A program made the translations under genes and the position numbers. Below are positions 9,566 to 58,979 of a stretch of 64,000 nucleotides of DNA, piece by piece (the first letter of the stretch is position 1; the number at the start of each line of letters is the position of its first letter). Origin of the DNA: Candidatus Magasanikiibacteriota bacterium (GTDB lineage Bacteria > Patescibacteriota > Patescibacteriia > Magasanikbacterales > GWA2-37-8). The notes below the pieces were generated by a model. It searched no databases and was not told the origin of the DNA. It saw nothing but the letters and a program-made list of their open reading frames with translations. The stretch is taken from the NCBI GenBank assembly GCA_030650025.1, contig JAUSEN010000008.1:1164-65163 (forward strand). Reading direction: 5' to 3'.

Positions 9566-11857
9566 TTACTCGCAAGTAGCGGCTAGCATATCGTACCAAT
9601 TAGACCCGCTACTAAATACCGAGAGCGGGGTCGTACAGCGGGAATGGTCAGGCGAATACCGCGCCGCCCAAATATCAGCATTATAAGCCGTGGCATCGAG
9701 CCTCACGCAAGTAATTCTAGCGCCGCCTTGGCAACTAATTTCCACTACGTCTTGGCCTTTGGGCGCGAAAGAAATCCGCGGATCGCCATAAAGCAAATAC
9801 GGTTTTTGATTCTTTACCGCTACGCTGGGGCTAAATCGGAACACAACTTGCTCTTCGAGTGGTTTACTGCGAACGATATCAACTTTCCCGCCTTGTCCAA
9901 AAACCCAATTATACAAATATGTCTTATGCTCGGTGGCGGCGCGCAGTAAAACCGAACTGTTGCGCAAAAGCGTATAAGGATAGCTGGCTCCCGAAGCAGT
10001 ATTTGGCGAAACAATCTCCGGGAGCGTGCGCTCAAACCGCTTTACTAATTTGGGGTTTCGGCCGCCGCGCTCGTACTCCCATTGATACAAAAAAACTCTG
10101 GCCTCGTAAGAGGTTACATTTTGGCCTCTCGGCACATCATCGAGTGTGCTGGTTGGCATTATATATTCCAAAACAATCAACCGGTTATTGCCGGCCTCGG
10201 TGAAAGAACAGGCCGCGCTCCGCTCTGCTCGCGCTAGGCGCGGGGCCGTACCGCTAAAATAAGAGTTGCTAATGGCGCAATCTTGGCTCCGGAGCTCGCT
10301 GTAGCTGGCCAAATTCCTCCCCGCCTGAAAAAGACGATCCTGCCGCTCGAGCCCGGCCCAATTAAACGCCCCCTCGCTTGCGAGCGCCACGGCGGCTCCC
10401 TTATAAGCGCTTTGGTTAAACGAACGCGCTGCAGTATGATTTTTCAGATTATAAATAGCCGCGGATCGAATGCTGTTCAGCTTAAGCTTCTGATCAACGC
10501 TTAAACGTGGCAAAACATCTTTAGAAAAAAGCAAAGTGAGCGCCGGCAAACTATCAGTGGAAAGTTCGGCGATATAGTCCAAATCCAAAGGCTGATTCTC
10601 CGCCATAAATCGGCGCACATTCTCGCGCGTAATAATATAATCAACGTTTACTGACGCGACCATTGTTAAAGCGGCCACCCCGGATATTAAAACGATATAA
10701 AAAAACCGGCGAAACGCCACCCGAATCCAAAAACAAGCCGCGGTTAGACTCAAAAGCGCCAAAATAAAATAAATAAACCACTCCACATAGAGCCGCAAAA
10801 CCGTGTAGCCATATTCAAACTGATACAAATTCATGCGCCGCAAAGCCGAGGCCGCGATGGCGCCGACTTGCAATACCAAGAGGGTGGTAAAAACGCTGAC
10901 GATTTTAGACTTCTCCCGCCCCACGAACGCGCGATACACCACTACCAAGAAAAGCGCAGAGAGCCCGATTACCCAGCTCAACTCAAAAAACCCTTGCCGC
11001 GCGTAATCCGCGAACGTCAAACCATTTTTTAAAACAAACTCCGCAGAACCAAATAAATACTTAAATTGAATAAATACGAACGCGCCAAATAAAACATTAA
11101 TCAAAGCCAACACCACGGCCACGATTACCTGGTCGAGCTCCCGGGCCAAGTCGTTAACACTGGCGAGAACGCTATCATGGAGGGCGGTCGCGTAATAAAA
11201 TCCGCCGGCAAAAAGCGCGAGCGCCACGGTGCGCAGAACCCGCCAAGCAAATTCCGGTATCTTCTCAATATTAAATAAATCCGCGAGCCCCTCTGCAAAC
11301 ACCGCGTCGGCCTTGTTAAAAAGCCAGGCAAAAATAATTAAAAACGGAATCGCGATAACAAGCCCGAGCAGTATCCGACGCACTAATTGTTTGCGCGGGT
11401 CATCGTGCCACAAAAAAACATCTTTATACATGTCCGACCACTTCATAAACAAGAGGTCAATCCGGCGCACCACGGGAAACCCGCGAAAATGGAACGTATG
11501 CTTAGCGGGGTTTTGCATGGTAGCGAGTAAGGCAAAGACCGCCGACAAAACCAAAACCATGGCGCCGCCGGCTTGGCGCACAAATTCGTTATTTAACAGG
11601 ACGCGATCCAAGCTAAGGATGACGATCGGAGCCAAGAGCCACCAGGCTTGTCTTTGGCGTAGCACCACGGTCAAGTTAGCGATTATTAAAAACCCGGTCG
11701 TATAAAGTAAAACGTAAATCGCGAACCCAATTCCCGGCTCTTGCTGCCAAAAAAAGAAGTCATACAGAATACTGATAACCGCCGCGAAACCCAGCCAAAT
11801 CAAACGATTATTTCTCGACTTTGAACTCGCGTTTGCATTCACAAAATCTAAATTCAT
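9566..11857 (-). CDS. Large polytopic membrane protein (~450-aa multi-TM region plus ~300-aa C-terminal soluble domain), function unknown
   Basis: Many hydrophobic helices at the N-terminus; no recognisable catalytic motif. Confidence 0.5.
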   Translation of the reverse strand: MNLDFVNANASSKSRNNRLIWLGFAAVISILYDFFFWQQEPGIGFAIYVLLYTTGFLIIANLTVVLRQRQAWWLLAPIVILSLDRVLLNNEFVRQAGGAMVLVLSAVFALLATMQNPAKHTFHFRGFPVVRRIDLLFMKWSDMYKDVFLWHDDPRKQLVRRILLGLVIAIPFLIIFAWLFNKADAVFAEGLADLFNIEKIPEFAWRVLRTVALALFAGGFYYATALHDSVLASVNDLARELDQVIVAVVLALINVLFGAFVFIQFKYLFGSAEFVLKNGLTFADYARQGFFELSWVIGLSALFLVVVYRAFVGREKSKIVSVFTTLLVLQVGAIAASALRRMNLYQFEYGYTVLRLYVEWFIYFILALLSLTAACFWIRVAFRRFFYIVLISGVAALTMVASVNVDYIITRENVRRFMAENQPLDLDYIAELSTDSLPALTLLFSKDVLPRLSVDQKLKLNSIRSAAIYNLKNHTAARSFNQSAYKGAAVALASEGAFNWAGLERQDRLFQAGRNLASYSELRSQDCAISNSYFSGTAPRLARAERSAACSFTEAGNNRLIVLEYIMPTSTLDDVPRGQNVTSYEARVFLYQWEYERGGRNPKLVKRFERTLPEIVSPNTASGASYPYTLLRNSSVLLRAATEHKTYLYNWVFGQGGKVDIVRSKPLEEQVVFRFSPSVAVKNQKPYLLYGDPRISFAPKGQDVVEISCQGGARITCVRLDATAYNADIWAARYSPDHSRCTTPLSVFSSGSNWYDMLAATCE

Positions 11858-11878: not shown

Positions 11879-13132
11879 TTATTTAATCACTCCCCCGCCT
11901 AAACACGCCCCGTTATTGTAAAACACCGCGAATTGCCCGGGCGTAACCGCGCGCTCTGGCTTTGCAAAATGAACGATAACGAGATTCCTCGTCGGCCTTC
12001 GGCCTCGCTCGGAATGACAACGAACAATGCACTCCTGCAATATCTGGCGATGGCGTAGGCGTACCTGGCATTTTAACGGAAATTGAGGTTTCTGACAAAT
12101 CCAATTAACGCCCGTAACCACAGCTTCTTTGGAAAACAAAAGCAGGTCATCTTCATAGCCAACAACCAATTCATTGGTTCTAATATTTTTAGCGACCACA
12201 TACAAAGGCCGATTCCCCTCTCCTTCGCAAAGGAGAGGGCGAGGGTGAGGACTCGCCAATCCCAAATGCCTCTGACCAATCGTATAAAACGCCAGACCAT
12301 CGTGTTTACCGACAACAATTCGCTGTAGGGGCGGGGTTACCCCGCCCTTACCGTACGACATTATAATCTTTCCCGGTTTATGTTTTATTCTTTTCTCCAA
12401 AAATTCTTTCATCGGCACTTCGCCAATAAAACAAATGCCCATGCTCTCGGCTTTATCCGCGACTGGCAAGCCAAATTTCTTAGCTAATTTCCTGACTTCT
12501 GGCTTAGTATATTCGCCCACGGGAAATAGAGTTTTAGATAACTGCTTCTGGTTTAGCTGGTGCAAAAAATATGTTTGGTCTTTATTTTTGTCTTTGGCTT
12601 CGAGAAGATGAACCAGACCTCCCCCAAACCCCTCCTTTGCGAAGGAGGGGGGTCGAGCTCCCTCTCCATCGCAATGGAGAGGGCGGGGGGTGAGGACTCG
12701 TCTCGCATAATGCCCGGTCGCCAAATAATCAAAACCCAATTCTTCTGCCTTTTTCAGCCAACTCCCAAATTTAATAAATTTATTGCACATCACATCCGGG
12801 TTCGGCGTCCGCCCCTGCCGGTATTCCGCGAACATGTAATCCAAAACATCGCGTTTATATTCTTTAACAAAATTCAGTTTCAAAATCGGAATATTTAATT
12901 GCGCGGCCACGCGCACAGCGTCGCGGTAATCCGGAACATAACAAGACTGCGTCTGTTGTAGTGGCCCGGCATGCCTGGCCACTACGTTTTCGCCGTCATC
13001 ATCGTAATTAATCATAAAAGCCGCCGTGACATTATATCCGGCTTTAACGAGGAGCGCGGCGGCTACGGCCGAGTCCACCCCACCACTAAGCGCCACTAAA
13101 ACTTTTATTTTTTTATTAAACTTTATTTTCAC
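11879..13132 (-). CDS. mnmA: tRNA 2-thiouridine(34) synthase MnmA carrying four in-frame palindromic-element insertions
   Basis: PP-loop SGGVDSAV, ...LATGHYARR..., KDQTYFL, YTIGQR, TPGQFAVFY. At 417 aa it is about 50 aa longer than canonical MnmA. The extra segments map exactly onto DNA palindromes; see findings. Confidence 0.9.
   Translation of the reverse strand: MKIKFNKKIKVLVALSGGVDSAVAAALLVKAGYNVTAAFMINYDDDGENVVARHAGPLQQTQSCYVPDYRDAVRVAAQLNIPILKLNFVKEYKRDVLDYMFAEYRQGRTPNPDVMCNKFIKFGSWLKKAEELGFDYLATGHYARRVLTPRPLHCDGEGARPPSFAKEGFGGGLVHLLEAKDKNKDQTYFLHQLNQKQLSKTLFPVGEYTKPEVRKLAKKFGLPVADKAESMGICFIGEVPMKEFLEKRIKHKPGKIIMSYGKGGVTPPLQRIVVGKHDGLAFYTIGQRHLGLASPHPRPLLCEGEGNRPLYVVAKNIRTNELVVGYEDDLLLFSKEAVVTGVNWICQKPQFPLKCQVRLRHRQILQECIVRCHSERGRRPTRNLVIVHFAKPERAVTPGQFAVFYNNGACLGGGVIK
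11981..12019. repeat. Half MITE-like element (GAGATTCCTCGTCGG-CCTTCGG-CCTCGCTCGGAATGACA) in-frame inside mnmA
   Basis: Encodes CHSERGRRPTRNL in MnmA. A reverse-complement copy is at 15666-15704, and an intergenic copy within 21090-21193. Confidence 0.6.
12215..12257. repeat. Palindrome CCCCTCTCCTTCGCAAAGGAGAGGG plus CGAGGGTGAGGACTCG tail, in-frame inside mnmA
   Basis: Encodes ...SPHPRPLLCEGEGNRPL.... A second, duplicated copy is at 12628-12704. Confidence 0.6.
12321..12344. repeat. Palindrome AGGGGCGGGGTAACCCCGCCC(C)T in-frame inside mnmA; identical in sequence to the intergenic terminator hairpin at 62143-62175
   Basis: Encodes GKGGVTPPLQ, inserted just before the conserved ...HDGLAFYTIGQR. 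Confidence 0.6.
12628..12704. repeat. Tandem palindromes CCCCTCCTTTGCGAAGGAGGGG and CCCTCTCCATCGCAATGGAGAGGG plus CGGGGGGTGAGGACTCG tail, in-frame inside mnmA
   Basis: Encodes RPLHCDGEGARPPSFAKEGFGGG, inserted between the conserved GHYARR and LLEAKDKNKDQTYFL. Confidence 0.6.
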
Positions 13133-13149
13133 AAATAATTAACAACACT

Positions 13150-13782
13150 TTACAAACTTACTGGCTTAATTTCTTTTTTTAATAACTTGACCTGATACTC
13201 ATTTATCGGGCGCATTAAATTTTGATCATTGGCCATTTGGCGGGCCTTATTTGTTATTAGCCAGTTATACATATCATACTTAAACCGAAAATCACTTCTT
13301 AAAGCCAAATAATCATTTTTAAAAAATATTTTCGCTCTTTTCACTCCAATATTTCCTAAGGCGTCTAATTTATCCGCATCACGCAATATAATCGCTTCTT
13401 GGTACTTATCCGCCGCGTTATTATAGTGGTACCGTACCGCATACAACAAAATTATTTTTTCTTCTTTGGTAAGAAGCGAAAAAATTTTATCTTTCCTAAA
13501 CCACTCTCGGCAAAGTTTATACGACAACTCGTGATGAGTATTGGTGGAATTATTTTTCGCGTGCGAGCCCTTTTTTTCTAGAGTTCTGCCCACATCGTGG
13601 AGTACTGCCGCGAGTTCACACAAAAATATATTTGCTTTCACCGCTTTAGCGATGACAATCGCATTTTTTACCACCCGCGCCACGTGGTCATAACCATGCG
13701 CTGGGACTGGAGTAACTTTAAACAAAGCTTTAACTTTAATGTTTACCTCTCTAACAATTTGTTTTTGAATTTTTGTATACAT
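13150..13782 (-). CDS. HD-domain phosphohydrolase
   Basis: HGYDHVARV ... AAVLHDVGR ... RDADKLDALG (H..HD..D motifs). Start set at the ATG at 13782. Confidence 0.7.
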   Translation of the reverse strand: MYTKIQKQIVREVNIKVKALFKVTPVPAHGYDHVARVVKNAIVIAKAVKANIFLCELAAVLHDVGRTLEKKGSHAKNNSTNTHHELSYKLCREWFRKDKIFSLLTKEEKIILLYAVRYHYNNAADKYQEAIILRDADKLDALGNIGVKRAKIFFKNDYLALRSDFRFKYDMYNWLITNKARQMANDQNLMRPINEYQVKLLKKEIKPVSL

Positions 13783-13894
13783 AATAACCAGATTATATAT
13801 GAAACAGCCAAATATTTCAAGATATCCCGCCATAGGCGGATTGTTAACTGACACAAAATTTGCCTCGCTTATGCTCGCAAATTTAGGTCGTTAA

Positions 13895-16043: not shown

Positions 16044-17459
16044 CTAAACCTTTTTTGCAGTACCCTTTACTGGATCAATCTCTACCAAATCTCCATTTTT
16101 AAATACTGTGGTCACGGTTTTCGTTCCAACAATGCATGGAATGTTTAATTCTCGGCTTGTAATAGCCGCATGCGAGGTGAGCCCACCGGTATCTGTTAAA
16201 ACTGCACAGGCCTTTTTCATAGCAAAAACATATTCCGGGCTAGTCATCGGCGCCACCAACACCTCACCTTCCTTAAAACTTTCTACCTTAGTTGGATCAA
16301 ATAAAATATGCACGACCCCCTTAATCATGGCGCCACTACCTTTACTCGCCACCGCCCCCCTTACTTCCGACGCTCCAACCGCAGATTTTTCTGTGCCATA
16401 CAAATTCCAATAAAAATCTACTTCCTGTGAGGATAATTCCCGGCAATCGTGGAAAAACCAAACGCCAAAACCATTGGCTCGTTTTTTTAATTCCTCGTGC
16501 AAATCTTGACCACTTATAATTTCGGCAATTTGATTATGCCACAAATTGTGTAACTCATCAAAACTATATTTATAACGACGCGCCACTTCGCTGGTCAAAA
16601 CATCAATATAATGCAAAATAATGAATATACTTTTTTTGCGTTCATCTTGCCACTCGATACCATACGTAATCGCCTTAGCTATAGCCATAATCTCTGGCGG
16701 TAAATTATATTGTGCTTGAAAACTGGCCTTGCGTTTAGCCGTTTCTGCTAATTTTGTTTTAACGTTACTTTCAAAATCAGTCGGGATTTCTTTTTTGTGT
16801 TCAGCAAACCAGGACTCAGACAAAATTTGGGTACCAGCATAGCTATTTTTTAACCAGTAAAATTGTTCAACGTGCTTTTTAAGATCGCTCGTGTTAACTA
16901 GGGCAATTTCTTCTTCCTGATAAAAAGAAATTTGCTCTGGCGCGGTTAACACTTCAAGAGCCGAACGCAATTCATCTTGGTCCGTAATAATAGGCTTTAA
17001 TTTTTCTGTCAGATACTCGGTCGAACCGTAATTTGCTAATTCGGGAATCGACCCAGCCACCCAAAATTTAAGATATAAATCATTAAAATTATTCCACAAC
17101 TTTAACAGCTCGCTATCGCTAGCAGCTGATAGTTTAAGCGAACCAATATGCTTTTCTAAGCTAGCGATCTCCCGATCATAACCCTGCCATTCTTTATATA
17201 TGCCCTCACGAGAAATCGAGGGTAACATGTACTTAACAAAAACTCGCTGCCCGGCCGCGACTACGTCTGGTGTGTTGTTAACCCAAAACGAACGACCGTC
17301 CTTAAACATCCATAAAGTCTCCGACCAATTTTCAGCAAACTTGGCACGAAAGGCTTGGTAGTGAGTCTCCACAAACGTAGAAACATACAAAAATTTGCCT
17401 GGCACTGGCCCCCAACGAAAAATATCGCCTTTGGAATCAAACGGAGTTTTATTTTGCAT
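16044..17459 (-). CDS. Protein with an unknown ~370-aa N-terminal domain and a C-terminal PEP-utilising-enzyme mobile (phosphohistidine swivel) domain
   Basis: C-terminus ...VLVAPMTSPEYVFAMKKACAVLTDTGGLTSHAAITSRELNIPCIVG carries the PEP-utilizers catalytic His motif. Overlaps the upstream HD gene by 11 nt. Confidence 0.7.
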   Translation of the reverse strand: MQNKTPFDSKGDIFRWGPVPGKFLYVSTFVETHYQAFRAKFAENWSETLWMFKDGRSFWVNNTPDVVAAGQRVFVKYMLPSISREGIYKEWQGYDREIASLEKHIGSLKLSAASDSELLKLWNNFNDLYLKFWVAGSIPELANYGSTEYLTEKLKPIITDQDELRSALEVLTAPEQISFYQEEEIALVNTSDLKKHVEQFYWLKNSYAGTQILSESWFAEHKKEIPTDFESNVKTKLAETAKRKASFQAQYNLPPEIMAIAKAITYGIEWQDERKKSIFIILHYIDVLTSEVARRYKYSFDELHNLWHNQIAEIISGQDLHEELKKRANGFGVWFFHDCRELSSQEVDFYWNLYGTEKSAVGASEVRGAVASKGSGAMIKGVVHILFDPTKVESFKEGEVLVAPMTSPEYVFAMKKACAVLTDTGGLTSHAAITSRELNIPCIVGTKTVTTVFKNGDLVEIDPVKGTAKKV

Positions 17460-18217: not shown

Positions 18218-19036
18218 CTACTTTTTAAAATTTCTCTGATCAGGTGGATATGGCTTATTTTTAATCTCATCTTTGGCATGCAACCACCCAAACTCAAAAA
18301 TTCGACGTTGTGACTCGGCAATCAGTGGGTCAACTACCGTAACTGCTCTATTTTCCTCTGGCAAAGCAATGCTAAAACTATTGTCAAAAATAGCCATAAA
18401 AGCGAACGAGGAAAATTCTTTAGGATCAATAAAACGCGCCTTCATGGGCGATGCTTTAGGATTTTTAATATACTTCATTTCCACATATTTTCTGGCTTCA
18501 GAAGTATCCATGAAAATAAACCGGGTCGGAATTTGTTTAGCAAATTTTTGAGGAAAATAAAAATTTTCTAAATAATCCTCAAACGGTTTAGCAAAAGCTT
18601 CGATTTTGGTCCACTCTAAAACTTCGGTTTTAGTATCTAACACAGCCGAAGCCCAATTCCGCAGTCCTTCTACTCCTTCATAATATATAACGTTAGTTTT
18701 AACAGGCTTTGGATTTTTACTAATTTCTTTAAGCTCCGGTACCAAAAATTCCAAAGCCCGCTCTTCGCGTTTTACTTGCTCCCCATGTTTACTAACGATA
18801 TCGTAAAGTTTAAATGGCGGGAAAGCCGCAAAACATCTTTTATTTTTTACAAATTCTTCATGCAAAAAACCTTTATCAATCAAGGATTTTATTAACCCAT
18901 AAGCACTCACACGCTTCTGCTTAGCTCTGCCTGCAATTTTTTGCACCGACTCAGGCCCTAATTCTAAACAAGCGACGTATACTTTAGCTTCAGCCAAAGT
19001 CAAATTAAATTTTTCCAATTCTTTAAAAATATTCAT
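18218..19036 (-). CDS. TrmB-family transcriptional regulator (N-terminal winged HTH)
   Basis: LTLAEAKVYVACLELGPESVQKIAGRAKQKRVSAYGLIKSLIDKGFL matches the TrmB HTH pattern. Confidence 0.65.
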   Translation of the reverse strand: MNIFKELEKFNLTLAEAKVYVACLELGPESVQKIAGRAKQKRVSAYGLIKSLIDKGFLHEEFVKNKRCFAAFPPFKLYDIVSKHGEQVKREERALEFLVPELKEISKNPKPVKTNVIYYEGVEGLRNWASAVLDTKTEVLEWTKIEAFAKPFEDYLENFYFPQKFAKQIPTRFIFMDTSEARKYVEMKYIKNPKASPMKARFIDPKEFSSFAFMAIFDNSFSIALPEENRAVTVVDPLIAESQRRIFEFGWLHAKDEIKNKPYPPDQRNFKK

Positions 19037-55768: not shown

Positions 55769-56686
55769 GTGATTCTAAATAAACAAATTATGAATTCCCC
55801 AGAAAATCAACTTAAAAAAAGCGGGTTAGTAACATTGGTTGGGCGCTCGAACGTCGGCAAATCCACCCTCTTAAATACCATCATTGGCACCAAAATTGCG
55901 GCCGTTACCGACAAACCTCAAACTACCAGAAACGCTATCCATGGCGTTTTAAACCGGCCTGCCTCGCCGGCAGGCGGGCCAGAAGGCCAGGCAGTTTTTA
56001 TTGACACCCCCGGTGTTTTTAAAAACCACTCTTCTCCGCTTTCTGGCGCTCTCCTCGAGCATGTGCAAGAATCTATTAAACACATTGATTTAATTGTTTA
56101 CGTGGTCGACCCTACTAAACCAATTGGCAGTGAAGAGCGTTATATCATGTCTTTAATACGCAACATCGAAGTTCCCAAAATTTTAGTCATCAACAAAAGC
56201 GATATTCATGAAAAGGAAAAAGAATTTCTAGAAGATTACAAAAGCCTTGGCGATGATTTTGCCGCCGTATTTGAATTGTCGGCTTTGCGCGCCCGCCACA
56301 TTGAACCCTTGATTCAAAAAGTTTTAGAATTACTACCAGTAGGCGAACCACTCTACCCGCCGGATCAACTCACTAATATCGACAAGAACTTCTGGGTGGC
56401 CGAACTAATCCGCGAAAAAATATTTCTAGCCTTGCGCAAAGAAGTGCCATATTCTACGCACGTCGAAGTGGAGAACATTGAAGATAAAACTGATATTTTT
56501 GTCGTCAAAGCGCGCGTTTTAACCTATAACAAAAAATATAAAGAAATGATTATTGGTAAAGGCGGCCGCGCCATTAAAGAAATTGGCATCGCCGCGCGCA
56601 AAGAACTGGAACAAGCTTTAGGTAAAAAAGTATATTTAGAGCTCGAAGTGGAGTATGACCGCCACTGGATCGATCGCGTCGCTTAA
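55769..56686 (+). CDS. era: GTPase Era, with a small in-frame GC-palindrome insertion in the G-domain
   Basis: G1 LVGRSNVGKST; G3 DTPG; G4 NKSD; C-terminal KH domain. The extra segment NRPASPAGGPEGQ before DTPG is encoded by the palindrome CCGGCCTGCCtcgccGGCAGGCGGGCC at 55961-55987. Confidence 0.9.
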   Translation: MILNKQIMNSPENQLKKSGLVTLVGRSNVGKSTLLNTIIGTKIAAVTDKPQTTRNAIHGVLNRPASPAGGPEGQAVFIDTPGVFKNHSSPLSGALLEHVQESIKHIDLIVYVVDPTKPIGSEERYIMSLIRNIEVPKILVINKSDIHEKEKEFLEDYKSLGDDFAAVFELSALRARHIEPLIQKVLELLPVGEPLYPPDQLTNIDKNFWVAELIREKIFLALRKEVPYSTHVEVENIEDKTDIFVVKARVLTYNKKYKEMIIGKGGRAIKEIGIAARKELEQALGKKVYLELEVEYDRHWIDRVA

Positions 56687-56728
56687 AAATTATTAAAAAC
56701 AGCTAAAATTAGCCAAAATATAGCAAAT

Positions 56729-56752
56729 AGGCCTTGACAAAAGGCCTTTTTT
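56729..56752 (+). terminator. Intrinsic terminator of era
   Basis: AGGCCTTgacaAAGGCCT followed by TTTTTT. Confidence 0.7.
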
Positions 56753-56762
56753 GTGCTATACT
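56735..56762 (+). promoter_or_regulatory. Near-consensus sigma70-type promoter (TTGACA-16 nt-TATACT) overlapping the era terminator and driving the M23 peptidase gene
   Basis: TTGACA at 56735-56740 sits in the terminator loop; TATACT at 56757-56762. A GGAGG SD lies 7 nt before ATG 56884. Confidence 0.55.
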
Positions 56763-56883
56763 GTTTAGTTAATTAAGATCAAAAATCGTGCCTAAAAATA
56801 CTTGGCGCGCCTAATGGGTAAGGGGAATTCTCCTCGAACCCTGGGGCGCGTCACGCCTCGTCAACCTGCCATGGAGGTGGCCA

Positions 56884-57615
56884 ATGTACGGAGAACACAG
56901 AAAGGCCGTGAGGCAGTTCTACGTGCTTTGCGCCATCCTCCCGGTGGGAGTGTTGGCCAAGGCAATGTGGGACGCCTACCACGAAGCCCCGGAGCGTGTG
57001 TTTACGTACCATGCTCCGCTCGCGCCCGCGGTCGACCTGCGCGATAAGCAGGCCTGGCCGTGGGCGCCCTTCACGGGCGGCCGGGACTCGGTCCCGGTAG
57101 AGCCGAGGCAGGGAGATCAGGACACCGGCCACGCGCTAGCGCTCCCGGCAGCTGCCCTCGCGGCCCTTCATGCCTGCCCCCTCACTGGGGCGGCCTGCCA
57201 GGTCTCGACCAGGCCAAACCTGCTCGTCGGCGCGGATCGCCCCGGGCGACGCCTTCCAAACGGGGACTGGCTCGCGGGGCACGAGCACAAGGGCATCGAC
57301 CTGCCCGGTGCCGGGAACGACGTCCAGGCCACCTGGCCCGGTGTCGTGGACAGCGTCGTAGAGGACCGGGACGGGTCCTCGGGTCTGATGGTCGTAGTCA
57401 GATCCAACCTTGGAGGCCTGGTGCTGTATCACAAGTACATGCACCTCGCCTCTGTCGCTTCCGGCCTTCGGCCGGGAGTGTCCGTCCGGGTCAGAGAAAA
57501 GCTCGGAGTGTCCGGTGCGAGCGGCGTGAAACAAAGCGCCGCGCACCTGCACTACGAGGTTCGGAGTCAGGCCGAGGGTGGGTCGTTCTACGACCCCACT
57601 CCCCTGATCCACTGA
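56884..57615 (+). CDS. Secreted M23-family (LytM/lysostaphin-like) zinc metallopeptidase, encoded in a GC-rich island
   Basis: Signal-peptide-like FYVLCAILPVGVLAKA. HxxxD HKGIDL; ...MVVVRSNLGGLVLYHKYMHLASV...; HxH SAAHLHYEV. Strong SD ccatGGAGGtggccaATG. GC content is far above the flanking DNA. Confidence 0.8.
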   Translation: MYGEHRKAVRQFYVLCAILPVGVLAKAMWDAYHEAPERVFTYHAPLAPAVDLRDKQAWPWAPFTGGRDSVPVEPRQGDQDTGHALALPAAALAALHACPLTGAACQVSTRPNLLVGADRPGRRLPNGDWLAGHEHKGIDLPGAGNDVQATWPGVVDSVVEDRDGSSGLMVVVRSNLGGLVLYHKYMHLASVASGLRPGVSVRVREKLGVSGASGVKQSAAHLHYEVRSQAEGGSFYDPTPLIH

Positions 57616-57621
57616 CCGAGG

Positions 57622-57716
57622 TGGGCAGAGCGGTCGCCTCAAGCGATCGCTCTGCCCCACCTGTAGTATCATCAAAAACAAAATCCCCTGAGCCTAGTCG
57701 AAGGGGAATTTTTTTA
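57622..57716. terminator. Two consecutive hairpins ending the M23 island. The distal one (ATCCCCTGAgcctagtcgAAGGGGAAT plus T-run) is a bidirectional terminator shared with ctpA.
   Basis: GGTGGGCAGAGCGgtcgcctcaagcgatCGCTCTGCCCCACC, then CCCCTgagcctagtcgaAGGGG plus AATTTTTTTATTTT. The minus strand has the same hairpin plus ATTTTGTTTTT. Confidence 0.6.
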
Positions 57717-58979
57717 TTTTAATAATTCTAAAGCTTTTTTGAGAGCCGCGTCTTCCCCGGCCGGCTCGGCATCCAATTTTTCTGTTATCTCAAAATCAGG
57801 CGTAATGCCTTTTTCGTTTATATTATTCCCCGCTGGAGTAAACCACTCGGCCACGGTAATTTTTAAAGCCGAACCATCCGAAAAAGTTTCAAAATCCTGC
57901 ACCGAGCCTTTACCAAAAGTCTTGGCACCCACCACAATCGCGACTTTATTGTCTTGAAGCGCCCCGGCCACGATTTCCGAAGCCGAAGCCGAGCCGCCAT
58001 TGACCAAAACCACGGTTTTAACACCCAGCAAACGATGCTCGCCGCGCGAGATATGCTTGTTCTCCCGGCCAGTGCTGAATTTTTCCGCCACGATTACGTC
58101 GCCTTCAGAAATCCATTCGCCAGCCAAACTCACGGCCGAATCCAGATATCCGCCCGGGTTGCCGCGCAAATCTAAAATGATTTTCTGGCCCTGTTTCTTT
58201 TTAAACTCTTGAATCGCTTTACCAAATTCCGGAACAGTCCGGTCGTTAAACTGCATCACGCGTAGGCGGAGCGCGCCTGGCGCTTCCCACACCATCATCG
58301 TCGCCGGAACATTAATCTTGGCTCTGGTTATTACGTAATCTTGCGCTTTTCCCAAACCATTTCGGCTAATGGTTAGGGTGGTCGTACTGCCCGCCGGACC
58401 CCGGATTAATTGCACCGCCGAAATCACATCCATCCCAAGCGTGATGGTTTTATCAATCGCCAAAATTTTGTCTCCGGGCCGCAAACCCGACCGCTCAGCC
58501 GGTGAACCAGGGAGCGGCGCCACCACGGTTAACTGGTCGTTCTTAAAGCCGATTTCCGCGCCAATGCCTTCAAACTCTCCCGCGAAACTTTTCTGAAATT
58601 CGTCCGCCGCTTTAGGCGGAAAAAATAATGAATACGGGTCGCCGAGAGACCCTACCAATCCCTGAATCGCTCCATAAAACATGTCCACATCTTTTACTTT
58701 GTCTTTTTTAACGTAAGAATCCTTAATTTTGTCCCAAATATCCCAAAATTGGTTAAAATCAGCGGTCTTCGAATTATTTTTAGTCCGGTCAATGTTGACT
58801 AGCGCGGCCATGTCCGTGGTGCTAGAAGCTCCCACTTCTTTTTTTAATTCCGATGTTTTCCCAATTAAAAGGCCAAGCGCAAAAGCGCCGACTACCGCGA
58901 TCAGTGTTAAATAAACTGTGATATAACGCGTGGCTTTAAATTTTGTTGGAGAAATTGGCGCCATAACTGGTTTAATCAT
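57714..58979 (-). CDS. ctpA: Carboxyl-terminal processing protease (S41, CtpA/Prc-like) with a PDZ domain
   Basis: N-terminal TM anchor; PDZ ...GLRPGDKILAIDKTI...; S41 ...VLVNGGSASASEIVAGAL...KTFGKGSVQ.... Confidence 0.85.
   Translation of the reverse strand: MIKPVMAPISPTKFKATRYITVYLTLIAVVGAFALGLLIGKTSELKKEVGASSTTDMAALVNIDRTKNNSKTADFNQFWDIWDKIKDSYVKKDKVKDVDMFYGAIQGLVGSLGDPYSLFFPPKAADEFQKSFAGEFEGIGAEIGFKNDQLTVVAPLPGSPAERSGLRPGDKILAIDKTITLGMDVISAVQLIRGPAGSTTTLTISRNGLGKAQDYVITRAKINVPATMMVWEAPGALRLRVMQFNDRTVPEFGKAIQEFKKKQGQKIILDLRGNPGGYLDSAVSLAGEWISEGDVIVAEKFSTGRENKHISRGEHRLLGVKTVVLVNGGSASASEIVAGALQDNKVAIVVGAKTFGKGSVQDFETFSDGSALKITVAEWFTPAGNNINEKGITPDFEITEKLDAEPAGEDAALKKALELLK

Follow-up and report, generated by a model that had tools for sequence, protein, structure and literature searches.

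The window analysed here, 64,000 nucleotides (nt) of contig JAUSEN010000008.1 from Candidatus Magasanikiibacteriota bacterium (GCA_030650025.1), holds a single GC-rich island, which lies between the convergent genes era and ctpA and encodes a peptidase of the M23 family. Two features of this island are new: its composition has stayed constant through heavy sequence turnover, and the part of its mRNA that encodes the M23 domain carries conserved structure on the sense strand. As an explanation of the whole we favour, as probable though well short of certain, an old accessory M23 cassette that has since been inherited vertically, whose GC content is maintained and whose mRNA structure would gate the production of a lytic enzyme.

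A single GC-rich island in the window

In a 300-nt profile, the GC content rises from 0.37–0.42 at 56350–56800 to 0.65–0.72 at 56800–57550 and returns to ~0.47–0.50 at 57550–58000. A preliminary description of the locus had placed the island at 56795–57685; it is present, with the GC-rich span better placed by the fine-scale profile at ~56803–57665. This is the sole segment above 60% GC in the 64 kb. All 300-nt windows above 0.60 lie inside 56801–57700, the sequence outside the island has a mean of 0.468 (s.d. 0.047, maximum 0.59), and none of the remaining 1-kb bins exceeds 0.52. In tetranucleotide composition, the island departs from the remaining sequence with a z-score of 13.5 relative to other 860-nt windows. 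The only credible open reading frame (ORF) of the island deviates to a similar degree:

56884..57615, + strand: coding sequence of an M23 (LytM-type) zinc metallopeptidase, 243 amino acids (Pfam PF01551)
57283–57573, + strand: M23 domain, residues 134–230, matching Pfam profile positions 2–91 of 96

Its GC content is 0.672 and its GC content at third codon positions (GC3) 0.795, compared with 0.466 ± 0.032 and 0.491 ± 0.058 for 47 other long ORFs of the window (z about 6 and about 5, respectively). The encoded protein has a fraction of 0.37 for glycine, alanine, arginine and proline (GARP) and of 0.12 for phenylalanine, tyrosine, methionine, isoleucine, asparagine and lysine (FYMINK); the corresponding values for 12 other window proteins are 0.26 and 0.28. 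The abrupt break and the GC-heavy third positions that had been described first are thus borne out. The AT-richness then ascribed to the flanks is confined to short spacers, the era and ctpA genes themselves having 43–48% GC. Neither a paralogue nor a repeat that could have served as source of the M23 gene was found within the 64-kb window, which also lacks tRNA and tmRNA genes and any Rfam family that reaches its gathering score.

Four copies at one junction

Homologues were sought among ~15 billion proteins by word-indexed searches with the single protein and with a four-member profile (5.8e9 clusters), and by an exhaustive HMMER search of 1.84e9 representatives at 50% identity. The family comprises four members: the window protein, of which NCBI holds an exact record as an M23 peptidase from a Candidatus Magasanikbacteria metagenome-assembled genome (MAG), and three orthologues at 68, 58 and 49% identity (loci L003, L004 and L001, respectively). 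Scores inside the family are 420–440 bits, versus 89 bits for the next match, which covers the catalytic domain only. The most distant orthologue is represented by two assemblies (L001 and L002) of one 20-kb contig with the order pyrG-rplI-era-M23-ctpA-murA. In L004, the C-terminus of era (36 residues, 89% identical) lies directly upstream of the M23 copy, so that both orthologues with recovered upstream sequence, L001 and L004, show the same era junction; L003 has a leader sequence homologous to that of the window. Divergence of the M23 proteins ranks with that of their hosts: L003 is nearest, L001 is the most distant, and era follows the same pattern in those loci for which it is available. 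No additional family member was confirmed in metagenome contigs, and viral contigs contributed only one generic M23 protein with 30% identity.

An era-based scan of GTDB species representatives recovered 19 loci of the Magasanikbacteria type. In the nine closest relatives (era 65–72% identical), era and ctpA are directly convergent across an AT-rich spacer of 17–150 nt within the order pyrG-rplI-era/ctpA-murA; none of the nine has an M23 gene there, and in most of these loci the spacer holds a single hairpin. Acquisition of the cassette is therefore placed in the lineage from which the window, L001, L003 and L004 descend. The horizontal acquisition proposed in the preliminary description accordingly stands as far as an insertion is concerned, given the nine empty sites. 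It does not stand as a recent or simple transfer: copies are shared among lineages, close homologues, the best ones included, are restricted to close relatives, with the same junction in the two for which upstream sequence was recovered, and no donor lineage is identifiable, the best match outside the family among the 1.84e9 representatives remaining at 89 bits. The nearest out-group M23 domains are rich in GARP residues (mean 0.40), and the only names obtained from 20 clusters were Myxococcales (two) and Polyangia (one). These would fit a high-GC source; they were rejected as a named donor, being too distant (89 bits) and composition-biased.

The flanks provide a measure of the age of the insertion. 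Between the window and L001, flanking proteins are 56–79% identical, the proportion of synonymous differences (pS) is 0.71–0.80 and the identity at fourfold-degenerate sites is 0.26–0.41, so that synonymous sites are saturated. The M23 gene is near saturation as well, with Jukes–Cantor (JC)-corrected synonymous divergence (dS) of ~1.0–1.5, and its non-synonymous divergence (dN) between the window and L001 is 0.48 versus 0.15–0.36 for the flanks. At conserved residues, the same codon is used in a fraction of 0.486 in M23 (permutation 0.418) and 0.455 in pyrG (permutation 0.394); the excess in M23 is no greater than that in pyrG, in keeping with joint divergence of the gene and its flanks. Neither an integrase or transposase nor a tRNA or target duplication was found with the cassette, and a 10-nt sequence is the only repeat flanking it. 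The simplest reading is a single old insertion, preceding the split of the four lineages and followed by vertical descent of a fast-evolving protein.

Some remoter relatives have unrelated genes between era and ctpA (L015 1778–2701, L017 4727–5414, L018 6861–8990 and L020 5856–7634). These inserts include a 114-residue ORF conserved beside ctpA in L015, L017 and L018, other ORFs and a membrane protein. The junction has thus been remodelled more than once; we regard these inserts as ordinary rearrangement and not as evidence that era/ctpA is an insertion hot spot for the cassette. Seven of the GTDB records (L007, L009, L012, L013, L014, L017 and L018) are titled ‘uncultured Gammaproteobacteria bacterium’. 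These titles look mislabelled, since all seven have the Magasanikbacteria order pyrG-rplI-era-ctpA-murA and an era that is 56–68% identical to that of the window.

GC-richness persists through sequence turnover

All four M23 copies have a gene GC content of 0.65–0.67 and GC3 of 0.74–0.80, in AT-richer surroundings (flank GC3 ~0.5). This constancy extends to the N-terminal halves, which in the deeper pairs are 38–43% identical (dN 0.60–0.67): every copy has GC 0.68–0.69, GC3 0.74–0.81 and GARP 0.39–0.46 in this part. Because four equally GC-rich copies are set between synonymously saturated flanks, the composition is not a fresh transfer scar. In a two-state mutation model of amelioration, a GC excess decays approximately as exp(−2 × GC-changing substitutions per site). 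With flanks at or beyond synonymous saturation, which means at least about one substitution per site and lineage, at most about a quarter of the excess would be left, and GC3 would have fallen to at most ~0.62 even from a donor at 0.95. That so much sequence change has left the composition untouched points to a maintained state, held either by selection or by a local bias, for instance GC-biased gene conversion, and we infer that GC is actively maintained in the M23 gene. A count of polarised changes gave 38 from strong (G or C) to weak (A or T) versus 14 in the opposite direction; this ratio is uninformative, since almost every third position that can be polarised is a G or a C.

Conserved structure in the M23 mRNA

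A second feature is apparent in the mRNA, which the preliminary description had left aside. Relative to synonymous-codon shuffles, the minimum free energy of the whole coding sequence gives z-scores of −7.0, −6.1, −3.3 and −3.3 for the four orthologues, as opposed to +0.4 to −2.8 for seven control genes of the window. A consensus was obtained with RNAalifold from a protein-guided codon alignment of the four orthologues:

57361..57609, + strand: sense-strand mRNA structure within the M23-domain coding sequence
57361–57480, + strand: four adjacent hairpins of the RNAalifold consensus
57503–57609, + strand: composite stem region of the RNAalifold consensus

With a null in which codon columns were shuffled within conservation classes and the structure was re-optimised for each shuffle, the M23-domain half (123 codons, 57244–57612) scored z = −10.3, and −11.5 in a repeat. 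Sixteen control chunks were scored in the same way; the 12 from era, pyrG, ctpA and murA in four genomes ranged from −1.8 to +1.6, and high-GC era chunks from −1.9 to +0.15. Each of the five orthologue pairs examined showed the signal (z −2.3 to −7.5). It is stronger on the sense strand (−11.5) than on the antisense strand (−4.2), and many pairs are G-U; a DNA cruciform or an antisense RNA is accordingly disfavoured. When codons were permuted only among columns with identical residues, which leaves all proteins intact, the z-score was still −6.2, with controls at −1.0 to +1.9 apart from one high-GC chunk at −3.3. Dinucleotide-preserving shuffles gave −5.2 (sense) and −4.0 (antisense) for the domain half, and −3.4 for the N-terminal half.

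Thirteen helices with 95 pairs in total make up the consensus, in which 91% of cells are paired; it was derived from the same four sequences that were used to score it. Pairs in which both sides have changed number 18, versus 7.8 ± 2.1 in shuffles and 1–9 in slid controls. Third positions covary, wobble to wobble, at A5 columns 213/237 and 216/234 (C-G to U-A), for example, and L004 has three consecutive compensatory pairs that arise from swapped Leu and Arg codons. Paired columns are GC-richer at all three codon positions and better conserved at third positions, and dS between the window and L003 is 0.58 in the structured half versus 1.01 for the remainder. There is, then, a clear statistical signal for conserved structure in the M23 mRNA, and its hairpins appear to constrain synonymous sites and to explain part of the GC excess. 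RNA structure as its full cause was rejected, the N-terminal half having no conserved structure and unpaired third positions having 71% GC.

An isolated member of the M23 family

The protein matches Pfam Peptidase_M23 (PF01551) with 47.4 bits, relative to a gathering cut-off of 28.7 (E = 2e-12), as well as PHROG metallo-endopeptidase families (E = 1e-11); PDB sequence matches include the M23 chains of TagE (5j1l), 6jmx, 5kqb and lysostaphin (4qp5). Across an alignment of six sequences, H135-KGI-D139 (HxxxD), H187 (in YMHLAS) and H221-L-H223 (HxH) are invariant. With all zinc and catalytic residues invariant, the protein should be an active enzyme and not a degenerate LytM-type activator. Its N-terminus consists of a basic segment followed by a hydrophobic helix of ~18 residues (about residues 12–29). 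An AlphaFold2 (AF2) model from six sequences, with a helix at 3–33 and a beta-rich part at 114–227, is poor (mean predicted local distance difference test, pLDDT, 48.9). The intact HxxxD...HxH site and the signal-like N-terminal segment of the preliminary description are thereby confirmed, and dN/dS among the orthologues is below 1 (0.24–0.62). The M23 gene is genuine, with intact catalytic residues and a product predicted to be membrane-anchored or secreted.

A region of ~100–110 residues (N-terminal coding part 56884–57243, motifs at about residues 60–130) with the family-specific motifs TGGxDSVPxE and HACPLxGAAC separates the helix from the catalytic domain, and the HMMER search returned no homologue of it outside the four-member family. 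It might be a pro-region or a segment that occludes the active site. HACPLxGAAC contains two invariant cysteines, upstream of the M23 domain. Pfam detected no SH3b, LysM or coiled-coil accessory domain in the protein, which ends 13 residues past the M23 domain. Within a known family, the protein thus represents a new and isolated member. Two ORFs overlapping the gene, 57060–57722 (+) and 57136–57681 (−), had already been suspected to be artefacts of high-GC DNA. They were rejected as genes: neither has a Pfam match, their open frames are not kept consistently across the orthologues, and their lengths do not exceed those in synonymous shuffles, as expected for by-products of GC-rich DNA.

Flanking genes and expression signals

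The cassette is framed, in order along the window, by the following genes and predicted signals:

55769..56686, + strand: era (GTPase Era), upstream flank; Pfam MMR_HSR1 and KH_2; 78% amino acid identity to the L001 orthologue
56729..56752, + strand: intrinsic terminator hairpin of era, AGGCC-TTGACAAA-AGGCCT followed by a T-run (terminator scan)
56734..56762, + strand: putative sigma-70-type promoter, TTGACA-17 nt-TG-n-TATACT, with extended −10 and 11/12 matches
56769..56883, + strand: 5′ leader of ~115 nt, its start site placed from the −10 element
56803–56853, + strand: three-tier leader hairpin (folding), with the apical stem-loop GGGGA-AUUC-UCCUC at 56822–56835
56873–56877, + strand: Shine–Dalgarno sequence GGAGG, 6 nt before the ATG
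57619..57662, + strand: long GC-rich stem-loop (inverted repeat) with a 19-bp stem and no U-tract, beginning 4 nt past the stop codon
57684..57716, both strands: predicted bidirectional intrinsic terminator of M23 and ctpA, UCCCCU...AGGGGA between A- and T-runs (fold)
57714..58979, − strand: ctpA (S41 carboxyl-terminal processing protease with PDZ), downstream and convergent; Pfam Peptidase_S41, PDZ and CtpB_N-like; 62% amino acid identity to L001

The Shine–Dalgarno sequence is as first described. The proposed promoter, TTGACA-16-TATACT, exists as an element conserved in three genomes (the window, L004 and L001; TG-n-TATACT or TATTAT), the spacer being 17 nt and not 16 nt long; from its sequence, we infer that it acts as a promoter. 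In the same three genomes the stem of the era terminator covaries and the TTGACAAA loop is kept, whereas the nine empty-site relatives lack this terminator/TTGACA-loop promoter element. Terminator and promoter are fused: the TTGACA −35 element lies in the loop of the era terminator, whose T-run continues into the extended −10 element (window 56729–56762; L001 9795–9832; L004 ~146–176).

Leaders of ~115–170 nt are present in all four orthologues and fold with z-scores of −2.7 to −3.6 relative to shuffles. The apical stem (5 bp with a 4-nt loop) is kept in four of four with two compensatory pairs, L001 having CCGGA-AUUC-UCCGG; its equivalents lie at ~9913–9926 in L001, ~53–66 in L003 and ~221–234 in L004. 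This stem-loop may act at the RNA level or, as an inverted repeat, serve as a DNA operator. The 3′ stem-loop, with folding z-scores of −6.0 in the window and −11.8 in L001, occurs at the equal position in L001, L003 and L004 with differing stem sequences and a common GGGTG start. The bidirectional terminator has an equivalent hairpin in L001 and corresponds to the single hairpin of the empty-site relatives. No match to the covariance models of Rfam 15 was obtained in the island at E ≤ 1, and no antisense promoter or antisense RNA was found there.

Four minor observations concern the same region and the window at large. The exact 10-nt direct repeat AAGGGGAATT occurs at 56820–56829 (leader hairpin) and 57701–57710 (3′ arm of the ctpA terminator); L001 shows no obvious counterpart of identical form, and the repeat may be due to chance. 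A 29-residue gene call at 10834–10923 of L001, over the stem-loops past the M23 stop codon, is almost certainly spurious. The era ORF of the window begins with a GTG (55769–55816) that lies 16–22 codons upstream of the similarity to relatives (305 residues versus 283 in L001), and the true start is probably further downstream than annotated. Finally, three AT-rich outlier ORFs, 13150–13854 (−), 16044–17459 (−) and 18218–19036 (−), have GC contents of 0.36–0.41, with a 300-nt minimum of 0.29 at 13101, and encode an HD-domain protein, a PEP-utilising mobile domain protein and a TrmB-type regulator; their deviation is opposite in direction to that of the M23 island.

Discussion

The explanation that we favour would begin with one insertion into the convergent era/ctpA spacer, in an ancestor of a small subclade of Magasanikbacteria, and with vertical descent since then. 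The inserted accessory cassette would comprise a promoter inside the era terminator, a structured leader of ~115 nt, the M23 gene and the 3′ stem-loop. Its protein would have evolved faster than the neighbours, while GC-richness would have been held as a maintained state. By what is known of the family, the enzyme would cut peptide cross-links of peptidoglycan outside the membrane, in the cell's own wall or in that of a host. Between them, the structured leader, the hairpins within the gene and the 3′ stem-loop would make for a stable and poorly translatable mRNA that limits or times the production of a potentially lytic enzyme. Such post-transcriptional gating is the probable role of the mRNA structure, and forms the weakest step. 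Sister lineages do without the enzyme, it is restricted to a single small clade, and its N-terminal region evolves fast; all this speaks for an accessory role, which could be attack on a host wall, competition or specialised remodelling rather than core growth.

A stronger version would make the transcript dual-purpose: a selected RNA architecture (leader hairpin, hairpins at 57361–57609 and 3′ stem-loop), together with a GC-favouring force, would hold the gene ~20 GC points up beyond synonymous saturation. We put this forward tentatively and consider it rather doubtful. Roles possible for such a transcript are a long-lived, translationally gated mRNA, an embedded and processed small RNA, or a protein-binding platform.

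Several points weigh against an old cassette with maintained composition and a structured mRNA. The amelioration argument is a quantitative one that draws on saturated sites, and if the donor was extreme (GC3 ~0.95) and the divergence as low as the data allow, passive decay could leave a GC3 of ~0.6–0.7. Flanks are known for one other carrier (L001), plus 36 era codons in L004, and the case for inheritance is not based on a phylogeny. The N-terminal half, which is the GC-richest part, has no conserved structure (RNAalifold z +0.3, range +1.0 to −1.8), unpaired third positions are as GC-rich as noted above, and one high-GC control chunk reached z = −3.3 with the protein-preserving null. As there are only four orthologues, covariation statistics of the R-scape type are not applicable; to this comes the low confidence of the AF2 model.

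Other accounts share some of this evidence. A recent horizontal acquisition from a high-GC donor, with the GC excess as an un-ameliorated scar, would explain the sharp compositional break and the empty site in relatives, and the GARP-rich nearest out-groups, of which the named ones are Myxococcales and Polyangia only, would suit it. It is nevertheless very improbable, given that the L001 copy at 49% amino acid identity has the same locus and composition between flanks that are synonymously saturated with respect to the window. Moreover, the synonymous memory of the M23 gene is not above that of pyrG, no donor exceeds 89 bits, and neither mobility genes nor flanking direct repeats beyond the 10-mer accompany the gene. 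Alternatively, the gene could have come long ago from a donor of extreme GC content, such as a member of the Myxococcota or Actinomycetota, and have ameliorated passively, slowly and still incompletely, the hairpins being incidental to GC-rich sequence under protein constraint. This account would again accommodate the out-groups. It would also be consistent with an M23 dS of only ~1.0–1.5, with the preponderance of GC-to-AT among scorable polarised changes (38 versus 14) and with the control chunk at −3.3 in the strict null. Yet the four lineages are found at one GC value (N-terminal halves 0.68–0.69 at 38–43% identity) and not spread along a decay path, the polarised counts are biased by third positions that are nearly all G or C, and RNAalifold z-scores of −10 to −11 are far beyond those of high-GC controls and survive the protein-preserving null. 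We therefore consider this account unlikely, though not far-fetched.

The cassette might instead be mobile within the clade, either site-specifically or by recombination from a phage or plasmid reservoir, or it might mark a recombination hot spot with GC-biased gene conversion. Conserved hairpins at both ends, the 10-nt repeat near both ends and fast protein evolution could be taken in this sense, and unpaired sites and the unstructured half are GC-enriched as well, as they would be with a mutational or conversion bias. The order of M23 divergence follows that of the hosts, however, and no integrase, transposase, target duplication, viral relative or metagenome-contig relative was found, nor is the repeat seen in the same form in L001; mobility thus appears quite unlikely. 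Least credible, to the point of being negligible, is an artefact, either an assembly chimera or contaminant or a non-coding structured RNA with a spurious ORF. High-GC DNA does yield long spurious ORFs, and the region folds strongly, but the junctions recur in independent assemblies (the window protein in the NCBI MAG and in Logan, L001/L002 in JGI and in Logan, and L004, which runs from era into the island), the Pfam match, invariant catalytic residues and dN/dS below 1 identify a protein-coding gene, and Rfam gave no match.

Comparison with known systems places an old, vertically inherited cassette between several of them. The protein resembles M23 endopeptidases (LytM/lysostaphin/MepM/ShyA-type; PF01551, MEROPS M23) in its domain score, in HxxxD, HxH and the third histidine, and in its N-terminal export or anchor helix, and differs from them in the isolation of its four-member family, in its own N-terminal region of ~110 residues and in the lack of an accessory domain. 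The term ‘lysostaphin-like’, used in the preliminary description, is not specifically supported: unlike the lysostaphin-type bacteriolysin, the island protein has no C-terminal SH3b or other wall-targeting domain, and lysostaphin chains match at E = 1e-4 through the catalytic core only. The model of genomic islets and their amelioration is that of Lawrence and Ochman. With classical acquired islets, the island shares a sharp compositional break and an empty site in close relatives; unlike these, it is GC-rich and not AT-rich, has no mobility genes or repeats, is common to diverged lineages at one site and has kept its composition in spite of synonymous saturation.

In type I toxin mRNAs, such as that of hok, and in the mRNAs of phage lysis genes, extensive folding and translational gating or rich structure are found. 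The island is similar in that its product is potentially self-lytic and its mRNA has a structured leader, internal folding and a 3′ stem-loop without a U-tract. By contrast with type I toxins, neither an antisense RNA nor a promoter for one was found in the island, and the product is a 243-residue enzyme, not a small membrane toxin. Control might also be exerted after translation. Wall hydrolases, among them those of the M23/LytM type, are degraded by CtpA in Pseudomonas aeruginosa (PMC8764530, PMC11021448), which makes the neighbouring ctpA a plausible regulator at that level. The arrangement recalls the LbcA–CtpA system with its MepM-type M23 and NlpC/P60 enzymes (PMC8764530, PMC11021448) in that the M23 gene is tail-to-tail with ctpA and murA comes next. 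It differs in that the two genes became neighbours when the cassette entered a spacer, which may be a coincidence. By this analogy, it is plausible that the convergent ctpA controls the M23 enzyme; their proximity may equally be an accident of the insertion site.

Compositional islands are routinely taken as signs of recent transfer. Here, a GC excess of 20 points can be a stable state and not a clock. Hairpins in the coding region offer a testable reason for part of this excess and point to post-transcriptional control in organisms where few regulators are known. Should the dual-purpose reading of the transcript be true, the island would be a rare documented case of a bacterial GC island that does not ameliorate, and of folding like that of genome-scale ordered structure in a cellular mRNA of the candidate phyla radiation (CPR). 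If the carriers are episymbionts like cultivated CPR bacteria, the enzyme would be a plausible agent of host contact or of growth of their own wall.

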